DNA of 64,000 bases from a virus (lineage: Duplodnaviria > Heunggongvirae > Uroviricota > Caudoviricetes): IMG/VR virus record IMGVR_UViG_3300045988_134250; one strand, 5' to 3'. Shown here piece after piece: positions 27,918-40,820 of the stretch. Position numbers and translations under genes: made by a program. Under the pieces are notes generated by a model, which was given only the letters and a program-made list of their open reading frames with translations, ran no database searches and was not told the origin of the DNA. Position 1 is the stretch's first letter. Every line of letters begins with the position of its first letter.

Positions 27918-28139
27918 ATGCAATCCATTAACTTCCGTACCGCGCGCGGCAACCTTTCTGAAGTGCTCAACAATGTTGAAGCCGGGGAAGAGGTTGAAAT
28001 CACCCGCAGAGGCCGTGAGCCAGCAGTAATTGTCAGCAAGGCTACTTTTGAAGCCTACAAAAAAGCGGCGCTGGATGCCGAATTTGCATCCCTGTTTGAC
28101 ACCCTGGACTCCACCAACAAGGAACTGGTTAACCGATAA
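27918..28139 (+). CDS. phd: Phd antitoxin
   Basis: [73 protein letters not shown] matches P1 Phd as recalled; ATG 27918 (track GTG 27912). Confidence 0.85.
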
Positions 28140-28519
28140 TGAGGCATATATCACCGGAAGAACTTATTGCGCTTCATGATGCGAATATAAGCCGCTACGG
28201 CGGCCTGCCGGGAATGTCAGATCCGGGTAGGGCAGAGGCCATTATCGGGAGAGTTCAGGCCAGAGTTGCCTACGAAGAGATCACCGACCTTTTCGAAGTC
28301 TCCGCCACCTACCTGGTGGCTACGGCGAGAGGGCATATATTCAATGATGCCAATAAGCGTACCGCGCTAAACAGTGCGCTGCTATTTCTACGCCGTAACG
28401 GTATACAGGTATATGATGATCCCGTGCTGGTGGAGCTTGCAGTGGGGGCTGCAACTGGTGAAATCCCCGTATCTTCAGTAGCGAAAAAACTACGTGAACT
28501 ATATGGTTCCAATATTTGA
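28139..28519 (+). CDS. doc: Doc toxin (Fic-fold kinase)
   Basis: 126 aa, [25 protein letters not shown]...[11 protein letters not shown]; TAATG overlap with phd. Confidence 0.85.
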
Positions 28520-28520
28520 A

Positions 28521-28552
28521 AAGAAGCCCGCTCAACCAGGCGGGCTTCTTAC
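28521..28552. terminator. Bidirectional hairpin terminator between doc and convergent terminase paralog
   Basis: gaagcccgc-tcaaccag-gcgggcttc stem-loop (28523-28548). Confidence 0.5.
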
Positions 28553-28554
28553 TA

Positions 28555-29649
28555 TCACTCAATGATTTTTTCTGCTGTCAGCCAGCTAATTTCTTGCCTG
28601 TCTTTCGGCGGTTTTAGCATGTGGGCGTATTCAGCGACATTCTCCCACGGAATTGTTTTTGCCCACTCAACGATAGCATTGTGATCTGCAGTGAAGAGTG
28701 GAATGGTGTGCGATTTCAACCATTCTAATGTCGTGACGCCATGTTTTTTGGCGTGGTGCTGCGCATGATGCCGGGCTATCACTCGTAATGGTATTGTCCA
28801 TTCACTACCATCAGGCATCGAAAAGCGCATTGTCTTCGGCATATCTGATTCAAGAACAGCCTCCCTAATACCAGGGAACTCACCAAGAATCATACGACGA
28901 TAGTCATCACTATTTCGCCCGCCATACCTTTCGGCAAAATGATCAAGATATTCTTGGGTAATAAATGGTGAATCCTCCGCACTCAGCTTAATGGCTTTAT
29001 ATACACCACTCGGATTATCTTCAGCTAAAGCACGTCCATGATGTGAATCATAAAAAAAGCCTATTTCCTCTGGTGACGGAATTGAAGTGAGCAATATGCG
29101 TGAATCACCACTAGTCATGCTTGCCCACACAATGCTGTATGCCCGATCGCTGATATGTGCGGAATCCACAATAATGAATAAAAGATGGTCGGCGTAGTGA
29201 CCTGCAATGCTATCTTCATAGTTAAGGCGGAAGTTACAAAAGCACATTCCCCAAAATTCATTGAACATCAGACCGCTATCACCGACCTTAAAATACTCAA
29301 TGATAAAAGGTTGTTTTTTCAGCAATGCCTCCCAACATTGCCACACATATGCAACAATTCCTCTTTTGCAAACATTTGATTTTGGATAAACAATTACTGT
29401 CCGGGAATCAGGATACATAATCGTATAAAGGGTACTAATAACAGCAAGCACTTGCGGTCGTCCGATCCCATACGGAGTGGTGACAGTAGCTTTTGCATTA
29501 TTGGGCTGTATAGCTTCAACAATTTGTTGTTGCTGGTGGCTTAAATCAATATCAAACAATTCTTTTGCTGCCAGTACCCAATTGTCTTTATATTTCTCCA
29601 CCAGCGACAGCCAGCGCGGATCTTTATAAATATTGCTCTTAGTCGCCAT
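28555..29649 (-). CDS. Terminase large-subunit paralog: ATPase-like domain with degenerate Walker A/B, lacking the C-terminal nuclease domain
   Basis: Track ORF 28555..29940 overlaps upstream gene; ATG 29649 gives ~364 aa (MATKSNIYKDPRWLS...). Aligns by eye to PacB-like 34738..36246 over ~330 aa (DPRW, HQQQQI, FFYDSHH, DNP.G, YGGR, LG.FP) but Walker A is TTPYGIGRPQ and Walker B is IIVDSAH. Confidence 0.6.
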   Translation of the reverse strand: MATKSNIYKDPRWLSLVEKYKDNWVLAAKELFDIDLSHQQQQIVEAIQPNNAKATVTTPYGIGRPQVLAVISTLYTIMYPDSRTVIVYPKSNVCKRGIVAYVWQCWEALLKKQPFIIEYFKVGDSGLMFNEFWGMCFCNFRLNYEDSIAGHYADHLLFIIVDSAHISDRAYSIVWASMTSGDSRILLTSIPSPEEIGFFYDSHHGRALAEDNPSGVYKAIKLSAEDSPFITQEYLDHFAERYGGRNSDDYRRMILGEFPGIREAVLESDMPKTMRFSMPDGSEWTIPLRVIARHHAQHHAKKHGVTTLEWLKSHTIPLFTADHNAIVEWAKTIPWENVAEYAHMLKPPKDRQEISWLTAEKIIE

Positions 29650-30406
29650 CTGCCACTTCCTTAACTTCTTCTTTGGCCTGTTCTGCAATCGCCGCACGGC
29701 ATTTCGCCCTGGCTGTAGCGATTGCTTCAGCTCGCACATCGTCTGGAATCGTTGACGTGATATACATATCCAGTTCTTCGGCACGGAATACTGTTTGGTC
29801 CAGATATTCGCGTAGCATCCAGGTAAATTCGAAATCACACGCGATAATCTCTGCGCTACCTTCTGCACCATTTGGGAAATGAATAAATGCCTGTTTAGCC
29901 AAACCGATAACACGACATGCGGTTGCCAAAACAGCGACAACTAGGTTTACATTTTCACACGCTACGGGCTGGTTAACGCCGGAGATTACTCCATTTAACT
30001 GTCGGTTATATGGAAGGTAGTTTGAGATGCGTTCTACGCGCCATGTGCCAGTCAGGCTGCCATTTTTAAATATAATTGGTGTAACGGATAGCCCAAGCTC
30101 GCGTATAAGTCGTTGCGCTATAGCAGGATCATTAAACAGGTCTAATGCTACACATTCGAAAGACTGCGCAAGGGCAAACAGTTCTTCCAGAGAGTAGTCT
30201 TTGCCCCTGGCGGTGATGTAACGACGAACGCCGCTGTCTGCATCACTCCATATAGCTACGCCATGCTCTTCATTCAGCTCTTCATTAAAGCCGAGATACG
30301 TCATGATAGTGCGTTCAATCGTGTCAAACGGCAGTGACATGTCGGCGTTAACAGCCACCAGCAGGCCATTACGCAAGCGGTATTGAATTGTTTTAGTGCT
30401 TTCCAT
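29639..30406 (-). CDS. Hypothetical protein
   Basis: 255-aa ORF immediately upstream of and overlapping the terminase paralog start. Confidence 0.5.
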   Translation of the reverse strand: MESTKTIQYRLRNGLLVAVNADMSLPFDTIERTIMTYLGFNEELNEEHGVAIWSDADSGVRRYITARGKDYSLEELFALAQSFECVALDLFNDPAIAQRLIRELGLSVTPIIFKNGSLTGTWRVERISNYLPYNRQLNGVISGVNQPVACENVNLVVAVLATACRVIGLAKQAFIHFPNGAEGSAEIIACDFEFTWMLREYLDQTVFRAEELDMYITSTIPDDVRAEAIATARAKCRAAIAEQAKEEVKEVADGD

Positions 30407-30412
30407 GTCAAA

Positions 30413-30853
30413 TCACTCCACAACAAACCAGTCACAGGCCAGCAGGTCGCCAACTGAAGGCACCCACGGAACAACTACACCTTGTGCATTTTTTAAGGCG
30501 AAATAAGCACCATACGGAACGAGGTCGCCGGGGAAATATCCCTTAATGGCTTCCATTCGTGCCGGGTACTGTCCTTCAGGAACCAGCCAGCAGAATTGGT
30601 TTTCGCCGTTCCACCCGCGTCGAGCAACTTTCTTGCCTTCCTTCAGCCACATCAGCGCGTCTGAAAAGTCGGCTGCTTCAAGGTCGATTTCTTCTTGCTG
30701 GGTGGTGATGCCACCAGCAGAAATAGTTACGCTCCCGGTAAGATTAATCATCACGCCGTTGTCATCCGTAATGATGACCGTGGTTCCATTTTTTTTGTGA
30801 GCTTTGTATTTGGGACGGAACTTAAAAAGCTCTTTCGTTGCCATGTTATTCAT
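30413..30853 (-). CDS. DUF2829-like domain protein (Tad2-like fold candidate)
   Basis: 146 aa; C-terminal FSDALMWLKEGKKVARRGWNG...VPWVPSVGDLLACDWFVVE resembles the DUF2829 signature as recalled. Confidence 0.45.
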   Translation of the reverse strand: MNNMATKELFKFRPKYKAHKKNGTTVIITDDNGVMINLTGSVTISAGGITTQQEEIDLEAADFSDALMWLKEGKKVARRGWNGENQFCWLVPEGQYPARMEAIKGYFPGDLVPYGAYFALKNAQGVVVPWVPSVGDLLACDWFVVE

Positions 30854-30867
30854 AGTCTTTTCTCTGC

Positions 30868-31362
30868 TTATAACTTTTCGTACTGAAGCGGTGAACGCTT
30901 AATTTCAAAGTGGCCTTCCGATGTGCTACCAAAGCCACCAGCACCACGCTCCGTTTCGTTGAGTTCCTCAACCTCGACTAGTGAGACTTGTTCAACACGC
31001 TCAAAAATTCCTTGCATGACAGCCATTCCAGGCTTGAGACAAACGCCTTCCCCGCCGGGATCAGTAATCAGTTTTGCCATGATTTCGCCGCGATAATCGG
31101 AGTCGATAATTCCTACGCAGTTAGCCAGGCGAGTATGTTTTTTGCAGCCCAATCCTGATCGCGGATAGAGTTTCAGACACCAGCCGGGCGGGATCTCCAT
31201 AGCCAGTCCGGTATACACCCACCAGCTTGAGGAAATTGCACCATTGCTATCGACGCATGGTTTTATTTCAACAGCCTCAAAATCCATCGCCGCCGATCCG
31301 GAGGTGGCATAAGCTGGAAGTTTTGCTGCCGGATGTAGGCGTTTCACTTTTACGTAAATCAT
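30868..31362 (-). CDS. dut: dUTPase-like protein
   Basis: 164 aa; LPAYATSGSAAMDF, GIIDSDYRGEI, RGAGGFGSTS motifs. Confidence 0.6.
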   Translation of the reverse strand: MIYVKVKRLHPAAKLPAYATSGSAAMDFEAVEIKPCVDSNGAISSSWWVYTGLAMEIPPGWCLKLYPRSGLGCKKHTRLANCVGIIDSDYRGEIMAKLITDPGGEGVCLKPGMAVMQGIFERVEQVSLVEVEELNETERGAGGFGSTSEGHFEIKRSPLQYEKL

Positions 31363-31841
31363 TGTTTTTTAGCTCTCTGCGTGAAGGTGTAAACCCGACG
31401 TTTGATATGTGGAACGGTAGGAACAGGAAGACAGGAACTTTCAATAACTCCTTGCTCATCCAGCGATCGCACCGCCCGCAAGAACTGCGACGTGTCGCCG
31501 CCAAACTGGCGGGCATAGGTGCTGCCGTTATGAAGTATTTGAGCTATTACCCGAGTTTTTGTCTGGCTGTCACGATATGCGAATAGCCGCACGGCCTCTT
31601 CTGGCGCAATCGCTAACTGATAGCCTTTCCCGGCACGGTGTCGAATGAATCCATGCGCCAGTAGGTTTTTGAGTTCGTTACGAGTGCGAACAGATCCGTA
31701 ACCCAGGAAGTGTGGATTGATAACGACTGGCTTAAACCATTCCGTAGGTGCTTTAGCTAATAGAGCTAACAGCTTCCCGGATAATTCTGGATAGGAAGAC
31801 GGGTAACAATTCAGAGATGGGTAATAAGTTTTCACCGACAC
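31359..31841 (-). CDS. Hypothetical protein
   Basis: 160-aa ORF, 4-nt overlap with dut-like gene. Confidence 0.45.
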   Translation of the reverse strand: MSVKTYYPSLNCYPSSYPELSGKLLALLAKAPTEWFKPVVINPHFLGYGSVRTRNELKNLLAHGFIRHRAGKGYQLAIAPEEAVRLFAYRDSQTKTRVIAQILHNGSTYARQFGGDTSQFLRAVRSLDEQGVIESSCLPVPTVPHIKRRVYTFTQRAKKQ

Positions 31842-32176
31842 CCCCTTGCAGGATATCGACCGGCATTAGTATCCGGTGCAATAAAGCCGGTAGTGGGGCG
31901 AGTGAAAGCGAGATTAATCTTCTCGACCATAGTGCGATAATTTTCCTGATAGTGGGCCAGGAGTTTTTCGGCGGCAATGATGGTTACTTTCCGGACGTAG
32001 CTTTCTGCTTCCTCCAGATTTCGCCAGTTTTTTTCGAGGGTAAACACAGGGACGGCCTCAAGCCCGGTCATGATGCCGAACACAACGACAGCATGACTGT
32101 TCTTAACACCAGCGGCGAAGGTTACGGTGTAACCATCCACCTTGAAGCGTCTTGATTCCGTGATTTGACTCTGCAA
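31832..32176 (-). CDS. Hypothetical protein
   Basis: 114 aa, TTG start with RBS aggagg; first gene after dre. Confidence 0.4.
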   Translation of the reverse strand: MQSQITESRRFKVDGYTVTFAAGVKNSHAVVVFGIMTGLEAVPVFTLEKNWRNLEEAESYVRKVTIIAAEKLLAHYQENYRTMVEKINLAFTRPTTGFIAPDTNAGRYPARGCR

Positions 32177-32234
32177 AGCACCCTCCTAAATAGGCGAGGG
32201 TACTTTACAGCAAAGGCGTTAATCTAAAAAGATG

Positions 32235-32244
32235 TGTTAGAAAT
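32235..32244 (-). promoter_or_regulatory. TTTTCTAACA motif copy
   Basis: plus gatgtgttagaaattt, between dre stop and next gene start. Confidence 0.45.
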
Positions 32245-32249
32245 TTAAT

Positions 32250-33278
32250 TTACGAATCCATCAGGCGGCTATTAGCCCCCACAGACACGCCGCCACGGCG
32301 AAGATACCGCATAAGTGTTTCCGGTTTCTTCCAGGTTCCTTCCTGCATGATCTCCACCATAGACACCTGCTTTTCAGCCATATCAATAGCGGCCCCGACG
32401 CGTGCACTATGCCCGGTCCACGTCCGGTATCTTCCTTTGTTTGGCGTAGCATCTCTTTTATTCAGCAACACCCAGGCGTCGCTGAATATTTTCTCCATTG
32501 CAGGTGCAGTAAGGGGCGTTGTCGTGATCCTGGCCTTATTGCTACGGTGTATCGGCGGGAACAGCACTGCGTCAGGATGTTCGCGAAGCCCGGAAACATC
32601 CAGCCAGTCATTCAGCACAGCGGTAGTGCGACGGGAAAGCACCTTATCAAGCCCGGCGGCGGTCGTTATTGTCTTCGTGTGTGAAATATGTAGCGTGACA
32701 GTGTCACCTGTTTGATCCAGATCTCCTACACGAATACGCGAGATTTCCGACATACGCATCAGCGTATTGTATGCAACAAAGAGAAAAGCCCGGTTGCGCA
32801 GGTCCACCAGCCGTTCTGACCTGGACAACAGGACGTCGAGCAGTTTCAGATCGTCCCACCGAAGCGGTATAGCCTGGCCTGTTCGTTCGCCTTTTTCAGT
32901 TGCCGCTTCGCGCCGGATGCGCCGCATAGCCAGAGAAACACTTTTATCATCCGAAAGTGGCGGAAGGCCACAATGCGAAAGCAGCATATTCAGCATGGCG
33001 TAGTGCTTATCAATGGTGGTCGAAGCCAGATCGGCATCATGCAGCTGAAGAAAATACTCGCGGGCCATTTCTGGTGAGATCGGAAACCAGGCAAGCTGGC
33101 GAGCGTGACACCAGCGCGCCCATGAATGAAACACCAACCGGAGGTCGCGCAGAGTATTCGGCGCATAAGCCCCCTGGTCATTCATGAACCGCATAAAGTT
33201 TTCTGCGGCCTCCTGGTACTCTTTGCCAATGTTGCGCAGAAAACCACCGGAGCTGCCAGAGATAATTAATTCACTCAT
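32250..33278 (-). CDS. dre: Cre-family tyrosine recombinase (Dre)
   Basis: 342 aa; Cre-like segments WFPISPE, LNMLLSHCGLPPLSDDKSVSLAMRRIRRE, IRVGDLD, WTGHSARVGAAIDMA, EIMQEGTWK; sequence as recalled matches D6 Dre; rox site 150 bp upstream. Confidence 0.85.
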   Translation of the reverse strand: MSELIISGSSGGFLRNIGKEYQEAAENFMRFMNDQGAYAPNTLRDLRLVFHSWARWCHARQLAWFPISPEMAREYFLQLHDADLASTTIDKHYAMLNMLLSHCGLPPLSDDKSVSLAMRRIRREAATEKGERTGQAIPLRWDDLKLLDVLLSRSERLVDLRNRAFLFVAYNTLMRMSEISRIRVGDLDQTGDTVTLHISHTKTITTAAGLDKVLSRRTTAVLNDWLDVSGLREHPDAVLFPPIHRSNKARITTTPLTAPAMEKIFSDAWVLLNKRDATPNKGRYRTWTGHSARVGAAIDMAEKQVSMVEIMQEGTWKKPETLMRYLRRGGVSVGANSRLMDS

Positions 33279-33430
33279 GAAACTATTTAACCTCTATATA
33301 CAGATAACGCTACGCGAAAAATATAAAAATGACAGGGTAGCTATAAGTTAATTTTCAAGATTCAAGCCTTTGATTCGAGGCGCGTATTTTCAGTGATGTC
33401 AATACTGATCATCTACCCATAATTATAGCC

Positions 33431-33462
33431 TAACTTTAAATAATGCCAATTATTTAAAGTTA
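33431..33462. other. rox recombination site (Dre target)
   Basis: taactttaaataat-gcca-attatttaaagtta: 14-bp inverted repeats around 4-bp spacer, identical to rox as recalled. Confidence 0.85.
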
Positions 33463-33644
33463 TAAAATGGCGATTTTTTTTAATCCATCACAGATTGATT
33501 CTGACCAGTAACACGTTGCCTTCATGGTCTTTAATTTGCGAAGCGTGGTTTATACAGTTGGTTTTCTAAATTTGATGACAAAAAATCACAGTTCGATCCT
33601 TTACTCACTCTGTTATTCGACATAAATTTGTCATAGTAATTTTA

Positions 33645-33654
33645 TGTTAGAAAA
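33645..33654 (-). promoter_or_regulatory. TTTTCTAACA motif copy just upstream of candidate repressor gene
   Basis: plus ttttatgttagaaaactaaat, 18 bp before ATG 33673. Confidence 0.45.
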
Positions 33655-33672
33655 CTAAATCGAGTAGGAATA

Positions 33673-34710
33673 ATGAGTAAGAAGTCGATCGAGAAAGAGT
33701 ACAAACGGTTCCTGCAAACCGCTGAACGGTGGAAAGAGCTGGTGGTCGCAAACTCTGTTTTCCATGATACCAGTTATGCTGGCGAGGAATTCCGCCATGT
33801 TGCATTAACGCATGACCAAAACATATTAGAAGAAGCTGAAAAATGTCTTGCTGAATGGAAAGCCTTCGTTGACATGTGCCGCGATGCCGACGGCAAAGCG
33901 TCGAACATTGTTGAGTCTGTATATTCTCCGATCCCATTCATCATTGAGGACACCAATCAAAGCACGCATGTTGTTGTGCAAAGCGCTACAACAACACGTA
34001 CATTTACACGTGAACAATTGCTCAAAAAATACGACAAAATCATAAAGAAAAGCCTGAAAAATAGGGTTTTTTCTCAAATCGTAGGTGCTCTTGAAGAAGA
34101 ACAGCGCTTCTTTGAAGCTGAGCCTGAAGGCGAGATCTACCGGGCGCGTAAAGAGGCATATACAGATGTTGTGCTGACAACAAACATCGAAGGCAGCAAT
34201 GCCCTTTCTCGCTTTAGAGTTGGCGCACATGGCGCATTGGTTTTCGCAAGACTACCGAAGACAACGATCCCCGTTGTCAATAATGTTGGTGAGCGCCGGA
34301 GCATTACAATTTATTCTGGCGTCGAATCGGTACCTTGCAGCCTTCTCGGCGATTTTAACTTATATCGTGTTCGTGACCTGGAAAAACACCAGCCAAGCTA
34401 CGTTGCGAAGTCGTACATCTTAAGGAACATCGATATTCGCAATGAAAGCCTTAAGCAGAAATCCGCTAAGATGCTGGAGGATGCCGATCCGGCTATTCGC
34501 CATATCATTGAGCGTAAGATACGTACATCACGTGAAGCAATGGCAAGGCTGGATAAAATGGATCTGGAATTGTTAGACGTAATGATGGCCTCTGGAGACG
34601 ACCTGACCGGCATAAAACTGAATGAAGCTCGTAAAAAATACGGCAAAGCAATCGAAGAACGTTACGGATACACATTCCCCCAAACGCAGTACGCCGCGAA
34701 GCTCTGGTAA
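33673..34710 (+). CDS. Candidate C1-type immunity repressor (positional inference only)
   Basis: 345-aa ORF between rox/dre and pacB, the position of c1 in P1-family phages; operator-like motif at its 5' end; no motif-level confirmation. Confidence 0.3.
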   Translation: MSKKSIEKEYKRFLQTAERWKELVVANSVFHDTSYAGEEFRHVALTHDQNILEEAEKCLAEWKAFVDMCRDADGKASNIVESVYSPIPFIIEDTNQSTHVVVQSATTTRTFTREQLLKKYDKIIKKSLKNRVFSQIVGALEEEQRFFEAEPEGEIYRARKEAYTDVVLTTNIEGSNALSRFRVGAHGALVFARLPKTTIPVVNNVGERRSITIYSGVESVPCSLLGDFNLYRVRDLEKHQPSYVAKSYILRNIDIRNESLKQKSAKMLEDADPAIRHIIERKIRTSREAMARLDKMDLELLDVMMASGDDLTGIKLNEARKKYGKAIEERYGYTFPQTQYAAKLW

Positions 34711-34737
34711 TCACAACCGGCCCCGCATCGCGGGGCT

Positions 34738-36246
34738 TTATATATCCAGATCCGGCATTTCGATATCCGCCAGAACCTGATCTCGGAAAGTTGCCATTTC
34801 GGCACCAATATCTTCATTAGCAGGCACATAGTCCACCAGCATAGTGAAGCAGTAGGTATCCCATCGGTCAGGCGATTTGATGTTTAGCTTTTGCCGCATG
34901 TGCTCTTTGCGCATCATCGCCATTTTCCCTTCTTCATTCAGTAAAAAGGGGATTTTTGACGCTTGCTCTGCCGTTTTAGGGTCACTGTCTATCCGCATAC
35001 GCCCTGACTTTATGGCATCTCGCGCCATAATATTTGCGTAGGCACGCTGATTAACAAATCGCTCCCTGTCTTTGTTCGCAAACATGGGTTTTCCCCACCG
35101 AATACGTACCGGGTTCGCACCACGACGCACCAACTGCGCACACGTATCAGAACCAAAACCATCAGCATCAACCGCGATTGTTATATTCGGGTATTTTTCC
35201 GGCGTACATTCGTTATATATGAAGTCAGCAAAGGCCAATGGGTCCATAGTGCCAGGCATCTCCATTACCTTAAAGTTAACAACGCGCCGCTTATCCCTGT
35301 GACCTGATACCTTGCAGATGTTGAGGACCGACTTATCTCGCCCATTACCAACGTCAGCCGTTGCCACCCATCCCCAGTTTTTCTCCAACAACACCTTGCG
35401 GCGAGCAGAGCGATCGCATTCATCACGACCAAGCAAATAGCCGTTAATTTCTCGTGGGAACTGACCAAGCACCTTGACCATGTACTCAATAGAATCGCGC
35501 CCACCATATTCCAGAAGCTTCTCCTTGATGAATTGTGGTGTGACGAACGGTGATTCTTCCGAGTTAAGAACAATTGCTGTCCAGATCCCTTTCGGGTTGT
35601 CTGGGGTTTTTGCTCGAGAATGGTGCGAATCGTAGAAATAACCACTTGGCCTTGTTGGCTGGGATAGCATCAACATCCGGTTATCTTCTTCAGTAAGAGC
35701 ACCGGTCATTACGCCGATCGCCTTATCAGATATACCAGATGCTTCATCCAGAATTAGAAGCAAATGTGCCGCGTGTTCCCCCGCCAGCGCTTCTTCGTTG
35801 CCGAGTCGATAACCTTTGCAGAGAACTTCCCAAATCCCCTTACGGGAGCGCTCATAAAACATGGTGTCAGAGAGGACAAAATAGGTCTGCAACCACCCAT
35901 GACGCTTAACTGCATTCGCCCAATACTGTTTAACGTATTTGAATACGCCTGTTTTTACCTGGCCTATCTTGTTAGCAACAATGATGACACGGGCATCGGG
36001 GAACAGGATCATAAAAATCAACAGCAACATCGCGGTAAGGGACGACTTCCCCGTTCCGTGTCCGGACGTGACGGTCGTCCTACTCCCCGTTTCCTGCACT
36101 GACTGAATGATCTGCTGCTGCTGGTGGGAGGGGAACATCCCAAAAATATCGACTACAGCCTGGGTAAAGTTGTAGCGGTATTTGATTACCATATCGCGCC
36201 AGCGTGGATCGCTGGTGACGCATTTAATCTTGCGCCCGCCAGCCAT
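34738..36246 (-). CDS. pacB: Terminase large subunit (PacB-like)
   Basis: 502 aa; Walker A TSGHGTGKSS, Walker B LLLILDEAS; start overlaps pacA stop. Confidence 0.8.
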   Translation of the reverse strand: MAGGRKIKCVTSDPRWRDMVIKYRYNFTQAVVDIFGMFPSHQQQQIIQSVQETGSRTTVTSGHGTGKSSLTAMLLLIFMILFPDARVIIVANKIGQVKTGVFKYVKQYWANAVKRHGWLQTYFVLSDTMFYERSRKGIWEVLCKGYRLGNEEALAGEHAAHLLLILDEASGISDKAIGVMTGALTEEDNRMLMLSQPTRPSGYFYDSHHSRAKTPDNPKGIWTAIVLNSEESPFVTPQFIKEKLLEYGGRDSIEYMVKVLGQFPREINGYLLGRDECDRSARRKVLLEKNWGWVATADVGNGRDKSVLNICKVSGHRDKRRVVNFKVMEMPGTMDPLAFADFIYNECTPEKYPNITIAVDADGFGSDTCAQLVRRGANPVRIRWGKPMFANKDRERFVNQRAYANIMARDAIKSGRMRIDSDPKTAEQASKIPFLLNEEGKMAMMRKEHMRQKLNIKSPDRWDTYCFTMLVDYVPANEDIGAEMATFRDQVLADIEMPDLDI

Positions 36247-37610
36247 TAATCATCCTCCGGCGGTTCTATCGCGATATCATCATCTCCGGCGTCATACCCT
36301 GCATCAGATGCATCATAATCACCGTAAATTTCAGCCGTTGCCGAAGGGTCAATATCCAGCTCTTCGTCGTTGGCCTCGAATTCTCCAGCTTTACGCTCGC
36401 CATTGCGGTCGTAATCTCCGCACCCCAATTCTTCAACAATGGTTGCCACATCCGCCCGGCGCTCTGCCAGCCATTGCGGATGGTTAGCCTGAAGCGTTGC
36501 AAACTCCCTTGCCTCTTTGTCCAGCTGTTCATCATCAACATCATTGACGTCAGAAACAGGTGGTTCGAGAAGAGTGATAGCTTTCGCCGCGCGCGCCGCG
36601 AGGATAGCCGGGACGCTGACACCCTGGCGCTCGATGTATTCAGCAACACCGATATCATCCAGTTCCTCGCGCTCACGCATACGTATAGCGGCGGCGATAA
36701 CTCTGGCTGCGCGTGCGTCAGCGCCAATGCGATATTCAATCTCTTTGCCACGCTGTTCGGCCTGTAGGCGTGCTAATTCGAGTTTTTCTCTGGCCTCAGC
36801 CTCTTTGAATGCTTGCTGGCGAGCGCTCTGACGAAGCTTTTCATCCCCCTGTCGCAGCTTTTGTTCGGACTGATATATAGCTGCCAACCTACTGATAAAA
36901 TCATTCATGTAGTAGGCCGCGTCACTGATTAGACCGAGAAGGCGCTGCCCAGGGTGCATTCCTTCTGGCTCTTTATCGCCCAAGGCGTCTATTTCCGCCT
37001 GTAGACGTTCGGCCTCCTGATCAACAATGCTTTGATACTGAAGTGCGCGCTCTTGCGCCATTTGAATTGCTAACCGCAGGTGTTCTTCTGCGCCGTTCTT
37101 CATCATATCGCGAGCCACATTCGTAGTTGGCAATGTGGCACGCTGCACAGCACCGTCAGGGATCATTGCAGAAGATCCCTCAATTTTTGGGGCGTTTTTA
37201 TCTTCTTCGGGGATCATTTTCGCCATTTTTTCGCGCAATGATCTCCTGACAGATTCTTTTATCTCATTGTTATTATTTGAATTATTTTCATGATCCGAAG
37301 TTTTCTTTCTCGGCATACTTCGGAAAGAACCTGCGCCCTGCGAATTGTCAATTTCTGTAAATTTTGTTTTTTCTGCACCCTCTTCCAGCTTTTTTGTTGC
37401 TCTTCCCGCCCGTTTTTTTTCAGGTGATTTGGTGCTTTTTTTTGTTGTCTTTACCTGCGACCGCACCTCATTTTTTTTCATATTGAGATGCTTTCTGGCT
37501 GTATTGAAGCTAAGGCCATGCTCCTCACAGTATTCCTTTACAGTGATCCCTTTTTCTTCACGCAACGCTATAAAGCGGGCGCGGTGCTCCTCCCAATTAA
37601 CCAGACTCAT
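36246..37610 (-). CDS. pacA: Terminase small/pac-recognition subunit (PacA-like)
   Basis: 454 aa; N-terminal HTH ITVKEYCEEHGLSFNTARKHL, central coiled coil, acidic C-terminus; coupled to pacB; GATC cluster inside 5' third. Confidence 0.65.
   Translation of the reverse strand: MSLVNWEEHRARFIALREEKGITVKEYCEEHGLSFNTARKHLNMKKNEVRSQVKTTKKSTKSPEKKRAGRATKKLEEGAEKTKFTEIDNSQGAGSFRSMPRKKTSDHENNSNNNNEIKESVRRSLREKMAKMIPEEDKNAPKIEGSSAMIPDGAVQRATLPTTNVARDMMKNGAEEHLRLAIQMAQERALQYQSIVDQEAERLQAEIDALGDKEPEGMHPGQRLLGLISDAAYYMNDFISRLAAIYQSEQKLRQGDEKLRQSARQQAFKEAEAREKLELARLQAEQRGKEIEYRIGADARAARVIAAAIRMREREELDDIGVAEYIERQGVSVPAILAARAAKAITLLEPPVSDVNDVDDEQLDKEAREFATLQANHPQWLAERRADVATIVEELGCGDYDRNGERKAGEFEANDEELDIDPSATAEIYGDYDASDAGYDAGDDDIAIEPPEDD
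37155..37300. other. Candidate pac site (cluster of Dam GATC hexamers inside pacA)
   Basis: Five GATC in ~135 bp (37161, 37174, 37212, 37240, 37292), four within TGATC; P1 pac lies within pacA and consists of clustered TGATCA/G elements. Confidence 0.45.
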
Positions 37611-37999
37611 AAAGCAACACCACGCTTTTTAACGGCGGCATTCCACAGCTTATTCGCCATGTCCACCAGCTCTCGTTGCTCTTTTCGCGCCTGTTCGACT
37701 GATTTCCTGCTACAGTTTTTAACCAGTAAACTGCCATATTCAGGGGTTCGCCCACGCACCTTGAACTGATATCCGTTCAGGCCATGCAACCAGTATTTTC
37801 GTGGGTAAACACGATCATCAAGCTCACAGATTGCCCTGCTTGAACGAACAAAATGACGAATGATGTTAGTTACACTTACTCGTGAAACATGGAGATGAGG
37901 GTATTTTTCTTTGGCGAGAGTGGTAATTTCAGTGACTGTCAGATAGCAGTCAGCCCTGATCATGATATCCGCAATTTCTGCGCTGCTGATTTGTTCCAT
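37607..37999 (-). CDS. Candidate late-promoter activator (Lpa-like; positional)
   Basis: 130-aa ORF directly upstream of and coupled to pacA; operator-like motif 80 bp upstream. Confidence 0.35.
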   Translation of the reverse strand: MEQISSAEIADIMIRADCYLTVTEITTLAKEKYPHLHVSRVSVTNIIRHFVRSSRAICELDDRVYPRKYWLHGLNGYQFKVRGRTPEYGSLLVKNCSRKSVEQARKEQRELVDMANKLWNAAVKKRGVAL

Positions 38000-38077
38000 T
38001 AATCCCCCGGGCAGGAAATGACCGAGGGGATGATAATGAGAATGTTAAAACTGTATAGACTGGTAAAAAGATGAATA

Positions 38078-38087
38078 TGTTAGAAAA
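38078..38087 (-). promoter_or_regulatory. TTTTCTAACA motif copy
   Basis: plus atatgttagaaaattaat; degenerate neighbour atatctaatgct 38096-38109. Confidence 0.45.
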
Positions 38088-38107
38088 TTAATACTAAATA
38101 TCTAATG

Positions 38108-38500
38108 CTACCAGCGAGACAAACGAACAACATGTTTCACTTTTGCGATCCACTGTCCGCGATAACTATTGATTACGGCCTGTGCCAGCTTCAAATTGGC
38201 TTCAAAATCAGCCTTACTACCATCAGACTCCACCAGCATTCCTCCATCTATTTCTGGTAAACATAGATAATCCTGCTCAACCTGCAGCGGCATTGATGGC
38301 TCTCTGAATGGGGTTACTTGCTCTGCTTTCCAGCGAAATCTAACCCTTATCCCCCTGGTGGTCATTACTAGATAGCCTGTTATAGTGCTTTTATGGCCCA
38401 CATCAGTACGCGTGGCATTGCATGACTCGATCTTACAGTTAGCGATAGACCACTCCATATTGGTGGCCTGTTGAGTGCTTAATTTGGTAGTCCCGTACAT
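38108..38500 (-). CDS. Hypothetical protein
   Basis: 130-aa ORF coupled (1-nt overlap) to upstream gene. Confidence 0.45.
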   Translation of the reverse strand: MYGTTKLSTQQATNMEWSIANCKIESCNATRTDVGHKSTITGYLVMTTRGIRVRFRWKAEQVTPFREPSMPLQVEQDYLCLPEIDGGMLVESDGSKADFEANLKLAQAVINSYRGQWIAKVKHVVRLSRW

Positions 38501-39075
38501 CAGAAAGCCTCCCAGTCAGTCGCGATAATATCCACACCAGTTGCAAACCAGTCTGTCTGCGCCTGTAAATCCCCATTCATCATTACCAGGCGAGGCATCA
38601 CCATCACATCGCACCCTTCCACAATATCGAATGCCTCTTCCGGCAAGAATTCGAAGAGCTTTTCTTTGCTGCCAATACTGCCACGGAACATCGATATATA
38701 GCTCCCTTTGGGCCATGATGTCCGCCGGGCATCAAGCCCTTTCATCATCCAGTAAAAAGCCGAGGAAAAAGGGATATTCTTTTTGCCAATGATTACATTA
38801 TTCGCTTCTGTGTATTTCAGGAACTTAACTAACCTTACCATTGACTCGGATAACGCAACGTATGGCTCATGATTGATTGCTGACACGCTTACACCGTGCA
38901 ATCCAACGCTTACCACTGTCATATCGCCGCTCTGTGCGGTTTCGATATTGACGCCTTTGCGAACTAATGAGGCGTAAATTTCCTCTCGCTTTTGGGTCCA
39001 GCGTTCACGCTTCCCTATGAAGTCACTCAAAATGAGATCTTCTTCTGTATATGCGTTATCGTTCGCCATTAACAT
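38500..39075 (-). CDS. Hypothetical protein with C-terminal DUF2829-like segment
   Basis: 191 aa; FSSAFYWMMKGLDARRTSWPKGSYI...DIIATDWEAF. Confidence 0.4.
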   Translation of the reverse strand: MLMANDNAYTEEDLILSDFIGKRERWTQKREEIYASLVRKGVNIETAQSGDMTVVSVGLHGVSVSAINHEPYVALSESMVRLVKFLKYTEANNVIIGKKNIPFSSAFYWMMKGLDARRTSWPKGSYISMFRGSIGSKEKLFEFLPEEAFDIVEGCDVMVMPRLVMMNGDLQAQTDWFATGVDIIATDWEAF

Positions 39076-39527
39076 AACGTTTCCTTTTTTACACGCGCGA
39101 CTATCCCCCGGAAGTACCGGTAGTGATGTCGTAACTTCGTATTAATTAAGGGGTACAGCCTGAGCGGCTATATGATGAATTGAAAGGAGTTGTGGCGGTG
39201 GTGCCTCCACCTGCCAGGTTAGCCACTCCTGGCGACGTCACTTATCAGAACGTAGTGAATGAAAATGGCTTCGTCACGAGCGCATAGCCGCAATTACCAC
39301 AACGGAAACGGCGCTCACGCTAATTAAACGCCTTTTCCTGTTGTGCGCCGTGCTCTTCCGGCTGTCACACCGAATCGCCAGGATGGTGAATCCGCAGTCC
39401 GACGCTATGAACGGGGCTTGCACATTCCGGCTACCTGGTGTGCCCATGCAGTGTTAGTAAAAGGTACCTAACAGCTACACCAGACCGCTAACGACGCATG
39501 TGCCATACGCCGTGTTACAACCAAATG

Positions 39528-39603
39528 TGGTGGCCCCTACCGGACTTGAACCGGTGACCGTGCGATTATGAGTCGCCCGCTCTAACCACTGAGCTAAAGG
39601 GCC
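39528..39603 (-). tRNA. tRNA-Ile2 (anticodon CAU, ileX-like)
   Basis: GGCCCTTTAGCTCAGTGGTTAGAGCGGGCGACTCATAATCGCACGGTCACCGGTTCAAGTCCGGTAGGGGCCACCA; near-identical to E. coli ileX as recalled; encoded CCA. Confidence 0.8.
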
Positions 39604-40032
39604 AGATTACTGTTAATTACGCTTACGCTTTTTGCCAGAACCGCGTAAGGCTTTTGCCGCTTGCTCTACCCCGTATGCAACCACCAGCAGAAACAATAAT
39701 GTCCACTCCGGGTTTTTATCGGCAAACGCCCAAAAATCCATCACTTGCAGCCACCTTTTAAGACAAAACGCCATTGCTGTTAGGTTGCGGTGCCGGGCGC
39801 CTCCCGGTGACGTTAACCAGTTAACAATTAACGCCGGATCACTTATGGATTCTCGTTACGCCAGTAAAAAGACCACCTTTACTGTTTTAACTGTTCCGCG
39901 TGCGCTTAGCCGCATTCACCGCAATGGTAAGAGCATTTGGCTGACTGGGCGGCGATGACGCCTGTACGCATTTGGTGATCCGGTTCTGCTTCCGGCATTC
40001 GCTTAATTAGCCAAATACCCTTAATGTTGCAC

Positions 40033-40119
40033 TGGCGGAGAGTAATGGAATCGAACCATCATCGCTTGCGCAATGGGACGGTTTTCAAGACCGCTTGAGC
40101 ACCATGCTCCCTACTCTCC
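40033..40119 (-). tRNA. tRNA-Ser (anticodon UGA), type II
   Basis: Acceptor GGAGAGT/ACTCTCC, anticodon arm CGGTCTTGAAAACCG identical to E. coli serT, long variable arm, T-loop TTCGATT, CCA end. Confidence 0.7.
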
Positions 40120-40491
40120 CGTTATTGTGGCGACCGGTGCTGATCTCCGGCTTGCGGTTATTTCAGACTCTCACGGGCGTTTAATTGCCCCGCCGAACAG
40201 CTCTTTTCCGCAATAGCTGCAATGTCTTTCGCGCATCAGCCTGCGCATTCACCACAATGTTGAGAACACTGGTTGTCACGCTGCAACGCAACATTTATTC
40301 GTAGATTGGGATATGACCCCGTTACGCCAGTGTTCTCAACGTTGTAGTGCCGGTTACGGTTCCGGCCAGACCTCTTCCTCAACGGGGTGTTCTCCATACG
40401 GACTACCGTTTATTGGTCGTTCCTGCGGTTTATGTTGTGAAGCCAGATGCTTATCTTCTGGTTGCTTCAAAGAGCTGCACTTCATCACAAC

Positions 40492-40565
40492 GGTAAGAGC
40501 ATTTATGGCTCGCATCGCGGGAAAAAGCCCACGGTAGAGAGTCGAACTCTACAAATGCTCTTACC
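40492..40565. repeat. 13-bp perfect inverted repeat enclosing a tRNA 3'-half-like element
   Basis: ggtaagagcattt (40492-40504) / aaatgctcttacc (40553-40565); on the minus strand the loop reads GTAGAG-TTCGACT-CTCTAC-CGTGGGC-TTTTT (T-arm plus acceptor-like 7-mer plus U-run); related copy at 39926-39938. Confidence 0.5.
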
Positions 40566-40573
40566 TGTTGTGT

Positions 40574-40649
40574 TGGTGCCGGTTAACGGGATCGAACCGC
40601 TGACCATTCGCTTACAAAGCGACTGCTCTACCAACTGAGCTAAACCGGC
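40574..40649 (-). tRNA. tRNA-Thr (anticodon UGU)
   Basis: GCCGGTTTAGCTCAGTTGGTAGAGCAGTCGCTTTGTAAGCGAATGGTCAGCGGTTCGATCCCGTTAACCGGCACCA. Confidence 0.8.
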
Positions 40650-40653
40650 AATT

Positions 40654-40740
40654 TGGTGGGGAGTGATGGAGTCGAACCACCCGAGTCGCAATGACAGTAG
40701 ATTTACAGTCTACCCCGCTACCCCTACGGACTAACTCCCC
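40654..40740 (-). tRNA. tRNA-Tyr (anticodon GUA), type II
   Basis: Acceptor GGGGAGT/ACTCCCC; anticodon arm GTAGACTGTAAATCTAC (E. coli tyrT: CAGACTGTAAATCTG); long variable arm; TTCGACT T-loop; CCA. Confidence 0.75.
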
Positions 40741-40745
40741 TAAAT

Positions 40746-40820
40746 TGGCGATGGTGGGTGGATTCGAACCACCGACCAGTTGGTTAACAGCCAACTGCTC
40801 TACCGCTGAGCTACACCATC
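40746..40820 (-). tRNA. tRNA-Asn (anticodon GUU)
   Basis: GATGGTGTAGCTCAGCGGTAGAGCAGTTGGCTGTTAACCAACTGGTCGGTGGTTCGAATCCACCCACCATCGCCA. Confidence 0.8.

Follow-up and report, generated by a model that had tools for sequence, protein, structure and literature searches.

We analysed a window of 64,000 nucleotides (nt; the whole of IMG/VR virus record IMGVR_UViG_3300045988_134250) and found it to be a D6-like, P1-type phage-plasmid of Escherichia coli: a megablast search of positions 28000-40000 against phage records gave 98% nt identity to Escherichia phage D6. Two of its genes, both on the minus strand, encode proteins with a domain of the Tad2 type. The first (30413..30853) encodes protein 1, of 146 residues, assigned by its open reading frame (ORF) and D6 match to phage D6 orf114. 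It is a deletion allele of a Tad2-family gene and consists of an N-terminal tail (residues 1-58; 30680..30853, minus strand), delimited by alignment with longer relatives, and a Tad2-like domain (residues 59-146; 30416..30679, minus strand) recognised with the Pfam family PF11195. The second (38500..39075) encodes protein 2, of 191 residues, assigned in the same way to D6 orf6. Here a divergent Tad2-like domain (residues 100-191; 38503..38778, minus strand) follows an N-terminal alpha-beta-beta-beta-alpha domain (residues 1-95; 38791..39075, minus strand) that resembles a double-stranded RNA-binding domain (dsRBD).

Both ORFs lie exactly where a sequence-only reading of the window had put them, with the peptides that it quoted, and its assignment of the two C-termini to the DUF2829 signature was correct. 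PF11195 is the current form of that family (‘Thoeris anti-defense 2-like’ or Tad2-like, formerly DUF2829), a 73-position profile with a curated cut-off of 25 bits. In a Pfam-A search, protein 1 matched profile positions 2-73 with residues 62-145 (E=5.9e-23, 81.6 bits) and protein 2 matched positions 3-72 with residues 103-190 (E=9.5e-10, 39.3 bits). Both scores exceed the cut-off and therefore are not chance matches. Sequence comparison of protein 1 with the PDB by phmmer recovered ModTad2 (9eib/8v3e, E~1e-20), HgmTad2/AcrIIA7 (8kbi, 4e-11), SPO1 Tad2 (8sme, 1e-9) and SptTad2. A profile-profile alignment of the protein 1 and protein 2 families with hhalign gave a probability of 97.6%. The Tad2 fold itself, with helix alpha1, an antiparallel beta-sheet and short loop helices, was found and can be superposed on solved Tad2 structures. 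A scan of NCBIfam returned no match for either protein. Thus proteins 1 and 2 encode Tad2-type (DUF2829) domains. The identity between these two domains is only 19%, so they do not represent a recent duplication.

Protein 1 is 98.6% identical to D6 YP_009914791 (orf114), which bears the RefSeq name ‘DUF2829 domain-containing protein’, and protein 2 is 99% identical to D6 YP_009914683 (orf6), annotated ‘hypothetical protein’. The E. coli plasmid NZ_CP117014.1 is 100% identical both to the protein 1 region and to protein 2. Around the two genes the window carries the counterparts of D6 pacA, pacB, lpa, c1, the Dre recombinase gene (dre) with its rox site, dut and phd/doc. Both are thus carried by a mobile element, the origin expected of the Tad2 family. 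Between 125 and 238 plasmid records carry the protein 1 and protein 2 genes; nearly all are non-mobilizable and, among the records listed, mostly of ~90 kb.

Tad2 proteins are experimentally established sponges of Thoeris, CBASS and Pycsar signals (bioRxiv 10.1101/2023.05.01.538930; PMC10680739; PMC12393519), in agreement with the sequence-only reading, which had described DUF2829 as the fold with which Tad2 sequesters Thoeris signals. Of the Tad2 homologues that have been tested, a majority block one or more signalling defences. A 2025 preprint based on AntiDefenseFinder-type screening reports ‘Tad2 AcrIIA7’ for 93% of the D6-like phage-plasmids and for 56% of the P1-like ones. The sponge idea is not new, as both proteins already bear DUF2829 or Tad2-family names in public databases. 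Our literature search found no published test of D6 orf114 or orf6, and no description of the deletion allele, the insertion allele series, the dUTPase (Dut) fusion or the two-domain architecture of protein 2 reported below. These are a modest extension of a well-studied family and leave its understanding unchanged.

The Tad2 domain of protein 1 and its allele series

Residues 59-146 of protein 1, its Tad2 domain, share 47% identity with ModTad2 and 36-41% with the Tad2 proteins of SPO1 and Hgm and with two others that inhibit type II Thoeris. The comparison sequences (SPO1 Tad2, ModTad2 and the two further type II Thoeris inhibitors) were taken from a supplementary table. Separately, we observed that in Table S3 of bioRxiv 10.1101/2024.01.03.573942 the ‘CcaTad2’ insert encodes the 90-residue protein listed for Tatumella morbirosei in the supplement of 10.1101/2023.05.01.538930; the labels TmoTad2 and CcaTad2 appear to be swapped in that table.

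ModTad2, from a Myroides odoratus prophage (8V3E, apo; 9EIB, with histidine-ADP-ribose, His-ADPR), is the best match to protein 1 in both sequence and structure. It sequesters His-ADPR, the signal of type II Thoeris, and holds the Pycsar signals cyclic UMP (cUMP) and cyclic CMP (cCMP) in a second pocket. The identity of 47% extends over 87 columns, the insertions between beta2 and beta5 differ in length by one residue, and both proteins share a W-N ... W-x-P-S-x-x-D motif. ModTad2 is an 88-residue stand-alone domain, to which protein 1 adds its tail of 58 residues and protein 2 its dsRBD-like domain of 95. Differences are found at the side of the pocket, where T, D, A and S of ModTad2 are replaced by N122, Q124, V128 and G135 in protein 1, and binding of His-ADPR and cUMP has been demonstrated for ModTad2 only. 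By its sequence, protein 1 is a Tad2 of the ModTad2 clade, with ModTad2 as its closest characterised relative and the same insertion architecture.

The family's founding member, SPO1 Tad2 (gp34.65; 8SME/8SMF/8SMG), has the same fold and sequesters 1''-3' glycocyclic ADP-ribose (gcADPR), the signal of type I Thoeris. It is 36% identical to protein 1 and 18% to protein 2. Its contacts to 1''-3' gcADPR are W25, N26, W73 and D79, while S76 coordinates a water. All four contacts are kept in protein 1 (W81, N82, W130 and D136), and the water-coordinating serine corresponds to S133. Seven residues of the domain (R78, W81, W130, S133, A139, D141 and W142) are invariant in 61 relatives. In SPO1 Tad2 the insertion is short and stacked F44 residues occlude the second pocket, whereas protein 1 has an insertion like that of ModTad2. 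HgmTad2/AcrIIA7 (8KBI-8KBM), a dual sponge of gcADPR and of cyclic GMP-GMP (cGG) and cyclic GMP-AMP (cGAMP), likewise has the fold seen in the window proteins; its W21/N22 and S90/T92/D93 correspond to W81/N82 and S133/G135/D136 of protein 1, but its long insertion is missing from both window proteins.

We then compared alleles. In seven of nine comparisons the ratio of nonsynonymous to synonymous divergence (dN/dS) for the Tad2 domain of protein 1 was ~0-0.1 (dN 0-0.010, dS 0.05-0.19), and the domain is thus under strong purifying selection (dN/dS ~0.03). In contrast, the linker that precedes it is poorly conserved (dN ~0.3, dS ~0.7, dN/dS 0.4-0.8).

The tail of protein 1 is the remnant of an in-frame deletion of 237 bp (79 codons), with the junction between codons 20 and 21 (~30793/30794). 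Relative to homologues of 225-233 residues, the first 20 residues are common, 79 are missing and the similarity resumes at KNGTT. In a DNA alignment with plasmid pTB423 the window is short by 237 bp, and A5 tracts lie at both breakpoints. Nearly all homologues on ~90-kb contigs have 211-233 residues and match protein 1 only from residue 21 on. The part removed was examined in an AlphaFold2 model of a 225-residue relative, P0011 (predicted local distance difference test score, pLDDT, 80), composed of an N-terminal beta-barrel, a low-confidence linker and the Tad2 domain. With Foldseek, the barrel gave a weak match to the phage L decoration protein, which has an oligonucleotide/oligosaccharide-binding (OB) fold (E=2.5e-3), and the Tad2 domain gave as its top match 9eib, ModTad2 with His-ADPR (E=8.9e-9, 46% identity). 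The OB-like barrel of the full-length relatives matched no Pfam family. The N-terminal extension of protein 1, 20 residues plus linker, is therefore a deletion scar and not a distinct targeting module.

A different truncation was observed at the same locus in sibling D6-like elements. Two of them (L102, 3001..3726; L103, 2067..2792) carry an in-frame dUTPase-Tad2 fusion of 241 residues (P0038) that corresponds to positions 30413..31362 of the window. This fusion apparently goes back to a simple deletion from ...ERGAGG (Dut) to ...ISAGG (Tad2 protein). At the protein 1 locus the Tad2 domain is thus preserved whole in three architectures: full length, with the 79-codon deletion, and fused in frame to dUTPase. 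A functional link between Tad2 and dUTPase was considered and rejected: the adjacency looks incidental, the fusion can be traced to a simple deletion, and the homologue in SJ46 lies between ssb and isaA without dut. In Bacillus phage Shanette, a match also overlaps a dUTPase annotation.

The insertion of the Tad2 domain also varies. Between W-x-G and W-x-P-S, P1/D6-like elements have no fewer than three classes of length, of 46 (the window), 54 and 37 residues (for example P0020, of 233 residues, and P0068, of 218; loci L082-L087 and L090-L094). In the 37-residue class W-N-G is replaced by W-K-G, which exchanges the ligand-contact Asn for Lys. These alleles suggest that ligand specificity is diversifying. 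Taken together, selection, fusions and the allele series show the Tad2 domain to be the unit kept by selection, with a putative ligand-binding insertion that is diversifying.

Protein 2, a divergent two-domain relative

Protein 2 belongs to a rare subfamily confined to D6-like elements. At E<=1e-3 we recovered 16 representatives among 1.84 billion cluster representatives, and among 50,697 phage records only D6 carries it. The exact sequence is present on 63 contigs, under the public names ‘hypothetical protein’, ‘Thoeris anti-defense Tad2 family protein’ and ‘MW1434 family type I TA system toxin’ (TA, toxin-antitoxin). The gene was found in 125 plasmid records from Escherichia, Salmonella, Shigella, Enterobacter and Pantoea, of which 123 are non-mobilizable; those listed are mostly of ~90 kb.

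The AlphaFold2 model of protein 2 (pLDDT 88.6) shows an N-terminal alpha-beta-beta-beta-alpha unit (residues 1-95) with a dsRBD-like fold, for which no Pfam match, dsRBD included, was obtained. RNA-binding dsRBDs carry a KKxAK motif at the start of helix alpha2. In protein 2 this helix (residues 71-91, EPYVALSESMVRL...) lacks such a start. In view of the absent motif and the absent Pfam match we rejected a dsRBD-family or double-stranded RNA-binding assignment, and speak here of a resemblance of fold only.

The two-domain architecture is fixed in the subfamily: the closer relatives (41-55% identity) all have 191 residues, and their alignments extend over almost the entire length. In divergent P1-type elements, with identity down to 43%, orthologues are again found between tciB and lpa; in the window tciB, followed by a tRNA-Met gene, stands at this locus. 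A dN/dS of ~0.1 indicates that the gene is functional. A fast, arms-race type of evolution relative to the neighbouring genes was also considered and dropped, as the identities show mosaic recombination with no consistent excess and dN/dS is ~0.1.

Downstream, protein 2 is followed by a partner gene (38108..38500, minus strand; D6 orf5, PHROG 7004) encoding 130 residues. Its ATG overlaps the protein 2 stop by one base (ATGA), so that the two are translationally coupled. The partner gave no Pfam or NCBIfam match. It adjoins protein 2 orthologues of 52-98% identity and is absent from the loci of 43% identity, L036 and L038.

The Tad2 domain of protein 2 keeps the family-invariant core R118, W121, W176, A185, D187 and W188, together with D182. 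Among the contacts of SPO1 Tad2, W25, W73 and D79 correspond to W121, W176 and D182, and N26 to P122. Residues invariant within the subfamily (G132, P145 and P161) fall within the insertion, which in HgmTad2 and ModTad2 makes up the second nucleotide pocket. The sequence-only reading suggested that two copies with unlike N-terminal extensions could target different host signals. The extension of protein 1 is a deletion remnant, and the N-terminal domain of protein 2 is conserved; if the two proteins differ in specificity, the cause more probably lies in their Tad2 pockets.

Proposed sponge function and competing explanations

We favour, with moderate confidence, a model in which a D6-like phage-plasmid carries two divergent Tad2-family proteins at two accessory positions, protein 1 being a signal sponge of the ModTad2 clade and protein 2 a derivative with altered specificity. 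By analogy with its characterised relatives, a sponge function is likely for protein 1; for protein 2 it is plausible. Solved Tad2 proteins are homotetramers, in which two V-shaped dimers come together and the pockets lie where protomers meet, and protein 1 would assemble in the same way. Its inter-subunit pockets (W81/N82 with W130/S133/D136) would then bind and sequester an ADP-ribose-derived signal made by a TIR protein, the best guess being His-ADPR of type II Thoeris, with 3' cyclic ADP-ribose (3'cADPR) possible. In the insertion, a cyclic nucleotide may occupy a second pocket. Such sequestration would keep a host abortive-infection effector from firing upon infection by the phage-plasmid or upon its induction. 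The 146-residue form would have lost the OB-like N-terminal domain and kept the whole Tad2 domain. Protein 2 would most likely bind another small nucleotide signal, possibly through its conserved insertion region.

Several observations weigh against this model. Ligand specificity is not readable from the sequence: the adenine-side residues I63, T65, D67, H71 and T78 of SPO1 Tad2 are replaced by L, N, Q, V and G in protein 1. Similarly, most cGG contacts of HgmTad2 are absent from protein 1; R31 corresponds to V91, nothing in protein 1 answers to S47 and N85, and F70 alone has a match, Y114. In protein 2 the pocket Asn of the W-N pair is lost (W121-P122), as it is in 14 of the 15 aligned subfamily members, and the equivalent of S76 is variable in the subfamily. 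Its Tad2 domain shares just 17-28% identity with those that have been characterised, and a sequence search of the PDB with protein 2 gave no match. The N-terminal domains could, moreover, interfere with tetramer formation. As to expression, no site with up to three mismatches to the P1 C1 operator consensus (ATTGCTCTAATAAATTT) was found in the window, and a promoter and terminator scan of 28000-40500, which gave fewer promoter-like sites than shuffled sequence, revealed no convincing promoter upstream of protein 2. The label ‘candidate anti-defence sponge’, which the sequence-only reading gave to both proteins, is fair for protein 1; the lost pocket Asn and the fused, conserved dsRBD-like domain make sponge activity less certain for protein 2.

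A first alternative, which we hold to be unlikely, is this: protein 2 would be no signal sponge, its Tad2-like fold having been recruited to another task, with the dsRBD-like domain binding a protein or a structured nucleic acid, maybe together with the coupled 130-residue partner. The altered pocket, the rarity of the subfamily, the fixed 191-residue architecture and the retention of the partner gene at most protein 2 loci all agree with it. However, the invariant core and D182 are retained, and the conserved positions of the insertion fall in the second-pocket region of HgmTad2 and ModTad2. Tad2 domains are, besides, often fused to other domains with sponge activity retained, helix alpha2 does not start as in double-stranded RNA binders, and the partner is missing at L036 and L038.

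Fusions also bear on a more far-reaching proposal. In Acb4-Tad2 and Tad2-Sequestin (PF21825) fusions (PMC12265669), a Tad2 domain and a second domain likewise share one polypeptide. Sequestin is a validated sponge family that was found through its fusions with Tad2, and another element of ~90 kb carries, fused to Sequestin, a Tad2 domain whose aligned part is ~85% identical to the protein 1 domain. Because this ‘guilt by fusion’ logic revealed Sequestin, the domains fused to Tad2 here (the dsRBD-like domain of protein 2, with or without the 130-residue partner, and the lost OB-like barrel) might be new anti-defence modules, either sponges or protein decoys, and the two divergent Tad2 paralogues with their insertion alleles might cover several host signals. 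Unlike the partners in the published fusions, the OB-like barrel and the dsRBD-like domain are not known sponge families, and we consider this proposal quite improbable.

Protein 1 might alternatively be a decaying remnant, inactivated by the 79-codon deletion, with an ORF that persists as the deletion is recent. The 146-residue allele was indeed found at only 5 of 60 IMG/VR loci, most others encoding 211-233 residues or more with the OB-like domain, and what the deletion takes out is well folded (P0011 residues 11-90, pLDDT ~78-92). On the other hand the reading frame is kept across the deletion and the Tad2 domain is whole, and the identical 146-residue protein is present on 527 public contigs from E. 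coli and Salmonella, including the independently isolated phage D6. Natural functional Tad2 proteins are stand-alone domains of 86-104 residues, as in SPO1 Tad2, ModTad2 and P0090, an 86-residue relative with 72% identity to the protein 1 domain. The Dut fusion, a second and independent N-terminal truncation, likewise retains the Tad2 domain. Decay is thus very improbable.

A role of both proteins as anti-CRISPRs of the AcrIIA7 type, inhibiting Cas9, appears scarcely credible. This was the activity that first linked DUF2829 to defence: HgmTad2, which protein 1 matches at E=4e-11, was originally named AcrIIA7, and AntiDefenseFinder treats Tad2 and AcrIIA7 as one family. D6-like elements live in E. 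coli and Salmonella, where type II CRISPR-Cas is not known to be usual, which counts against this role. Moreover, inhibition of Cas9 by HgmTad2 and homologues was not reproduced in vitro or in vivo (PMC10680739). We give hardly any credence to the view that the two act as small type I toxins of a toxin-antitoxin pair. RefSeq/NCBI do name several protein 2 orthologues ‘MW1434 family type I TA system toxin’, but the one paper found to mention MW1434 (PMC6266405, Table 1) lists it among predicted type I toxins, with no word on assignment or testing, and the label was not reproduced by NCBIfam, which matched neither window protein. Unlike type I toxins, both proteins consist of soluble alpha/beta domains for which no membrane helix is predicted, and they have the fold of solved sponges.

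D6- and P1-like phage-plasmids are common in clinically concerning lineages of E. coli, Shigella and Salmonella, and to know what host defences they can silence helps to account for their persistence and spread. If active, protein 1 would be a ModTad2-type sponge native to elements of Enterobacteriaceae and could conveniently serve to capture TIR-derived signals in E. coli. The series of natural alleles (full length, 79-codon deletion, dUTPase fusion and three insertion classes, one of them with W-K) constitutes a ready-made experiment on the parts of a Tad2 protein that determine ligand specificity. Protein 2, in turn, is a test case for signal binding by a Tad2 fold without the canonical Asn and for the contribution of a dsRBD-like addition.

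Surrounding genes and expression signals

Protein 1 lies in a tightly packed gene string on the minus strand that also includes dut (30868..31362), which ends 14 nt upstream of protein 1 and was identified by PF00692 (E=1.7e-14) and by the D6 annotation. Between dre and dut, and overlapping their neighbours, are two ORFs without an informative family match (31359..32176, minus strand; D6 orf116 and orf117). Directly downstream of protein 1 is an isaA-like gene (29639..30406, minus strand; D6 orf113, ‘similar to P1 isaA’, PHROG 2326). The best sigma-70-like match of the scan, and its only strong one (33422..33449, minus strand; TTGGCA, 16-nt spacer, TATAAT, 11 of 12 positions) overlaps rox upstream of dre. 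From its position, this consensus match could drive the dre-orf117-orf116-dut-Tad2-isaA string.

Just downstream of the isaA-like gene, an ORF of 364 residues (28555..29649, minus strand) is paralogous to PacB, the large terminase, in its ATPase half. The two are 37% identical over 258 residues, and the Walker A motif is degenerate in the ORF (GHGTGKS to PYGIGRP). In sibling plasmids it is annotated merely as ‘hypothetical protein’.

Finally, ARAGORN identified a cluster of five tRNA genes at 39528..40820 (minus strand): Met(CAT), Ser(TGA), Thr(TGT), Tyr(GTA) and Asn(GTT). In the D6 RefSeq stretch retrieved, only tRNA Ser, Thr and Asn are listed, and the spacing to protein 2 is also unlike that in the window. 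These differences in tRNA set and spacing indicate insertions or deletions relative to D6 in this part of the window.

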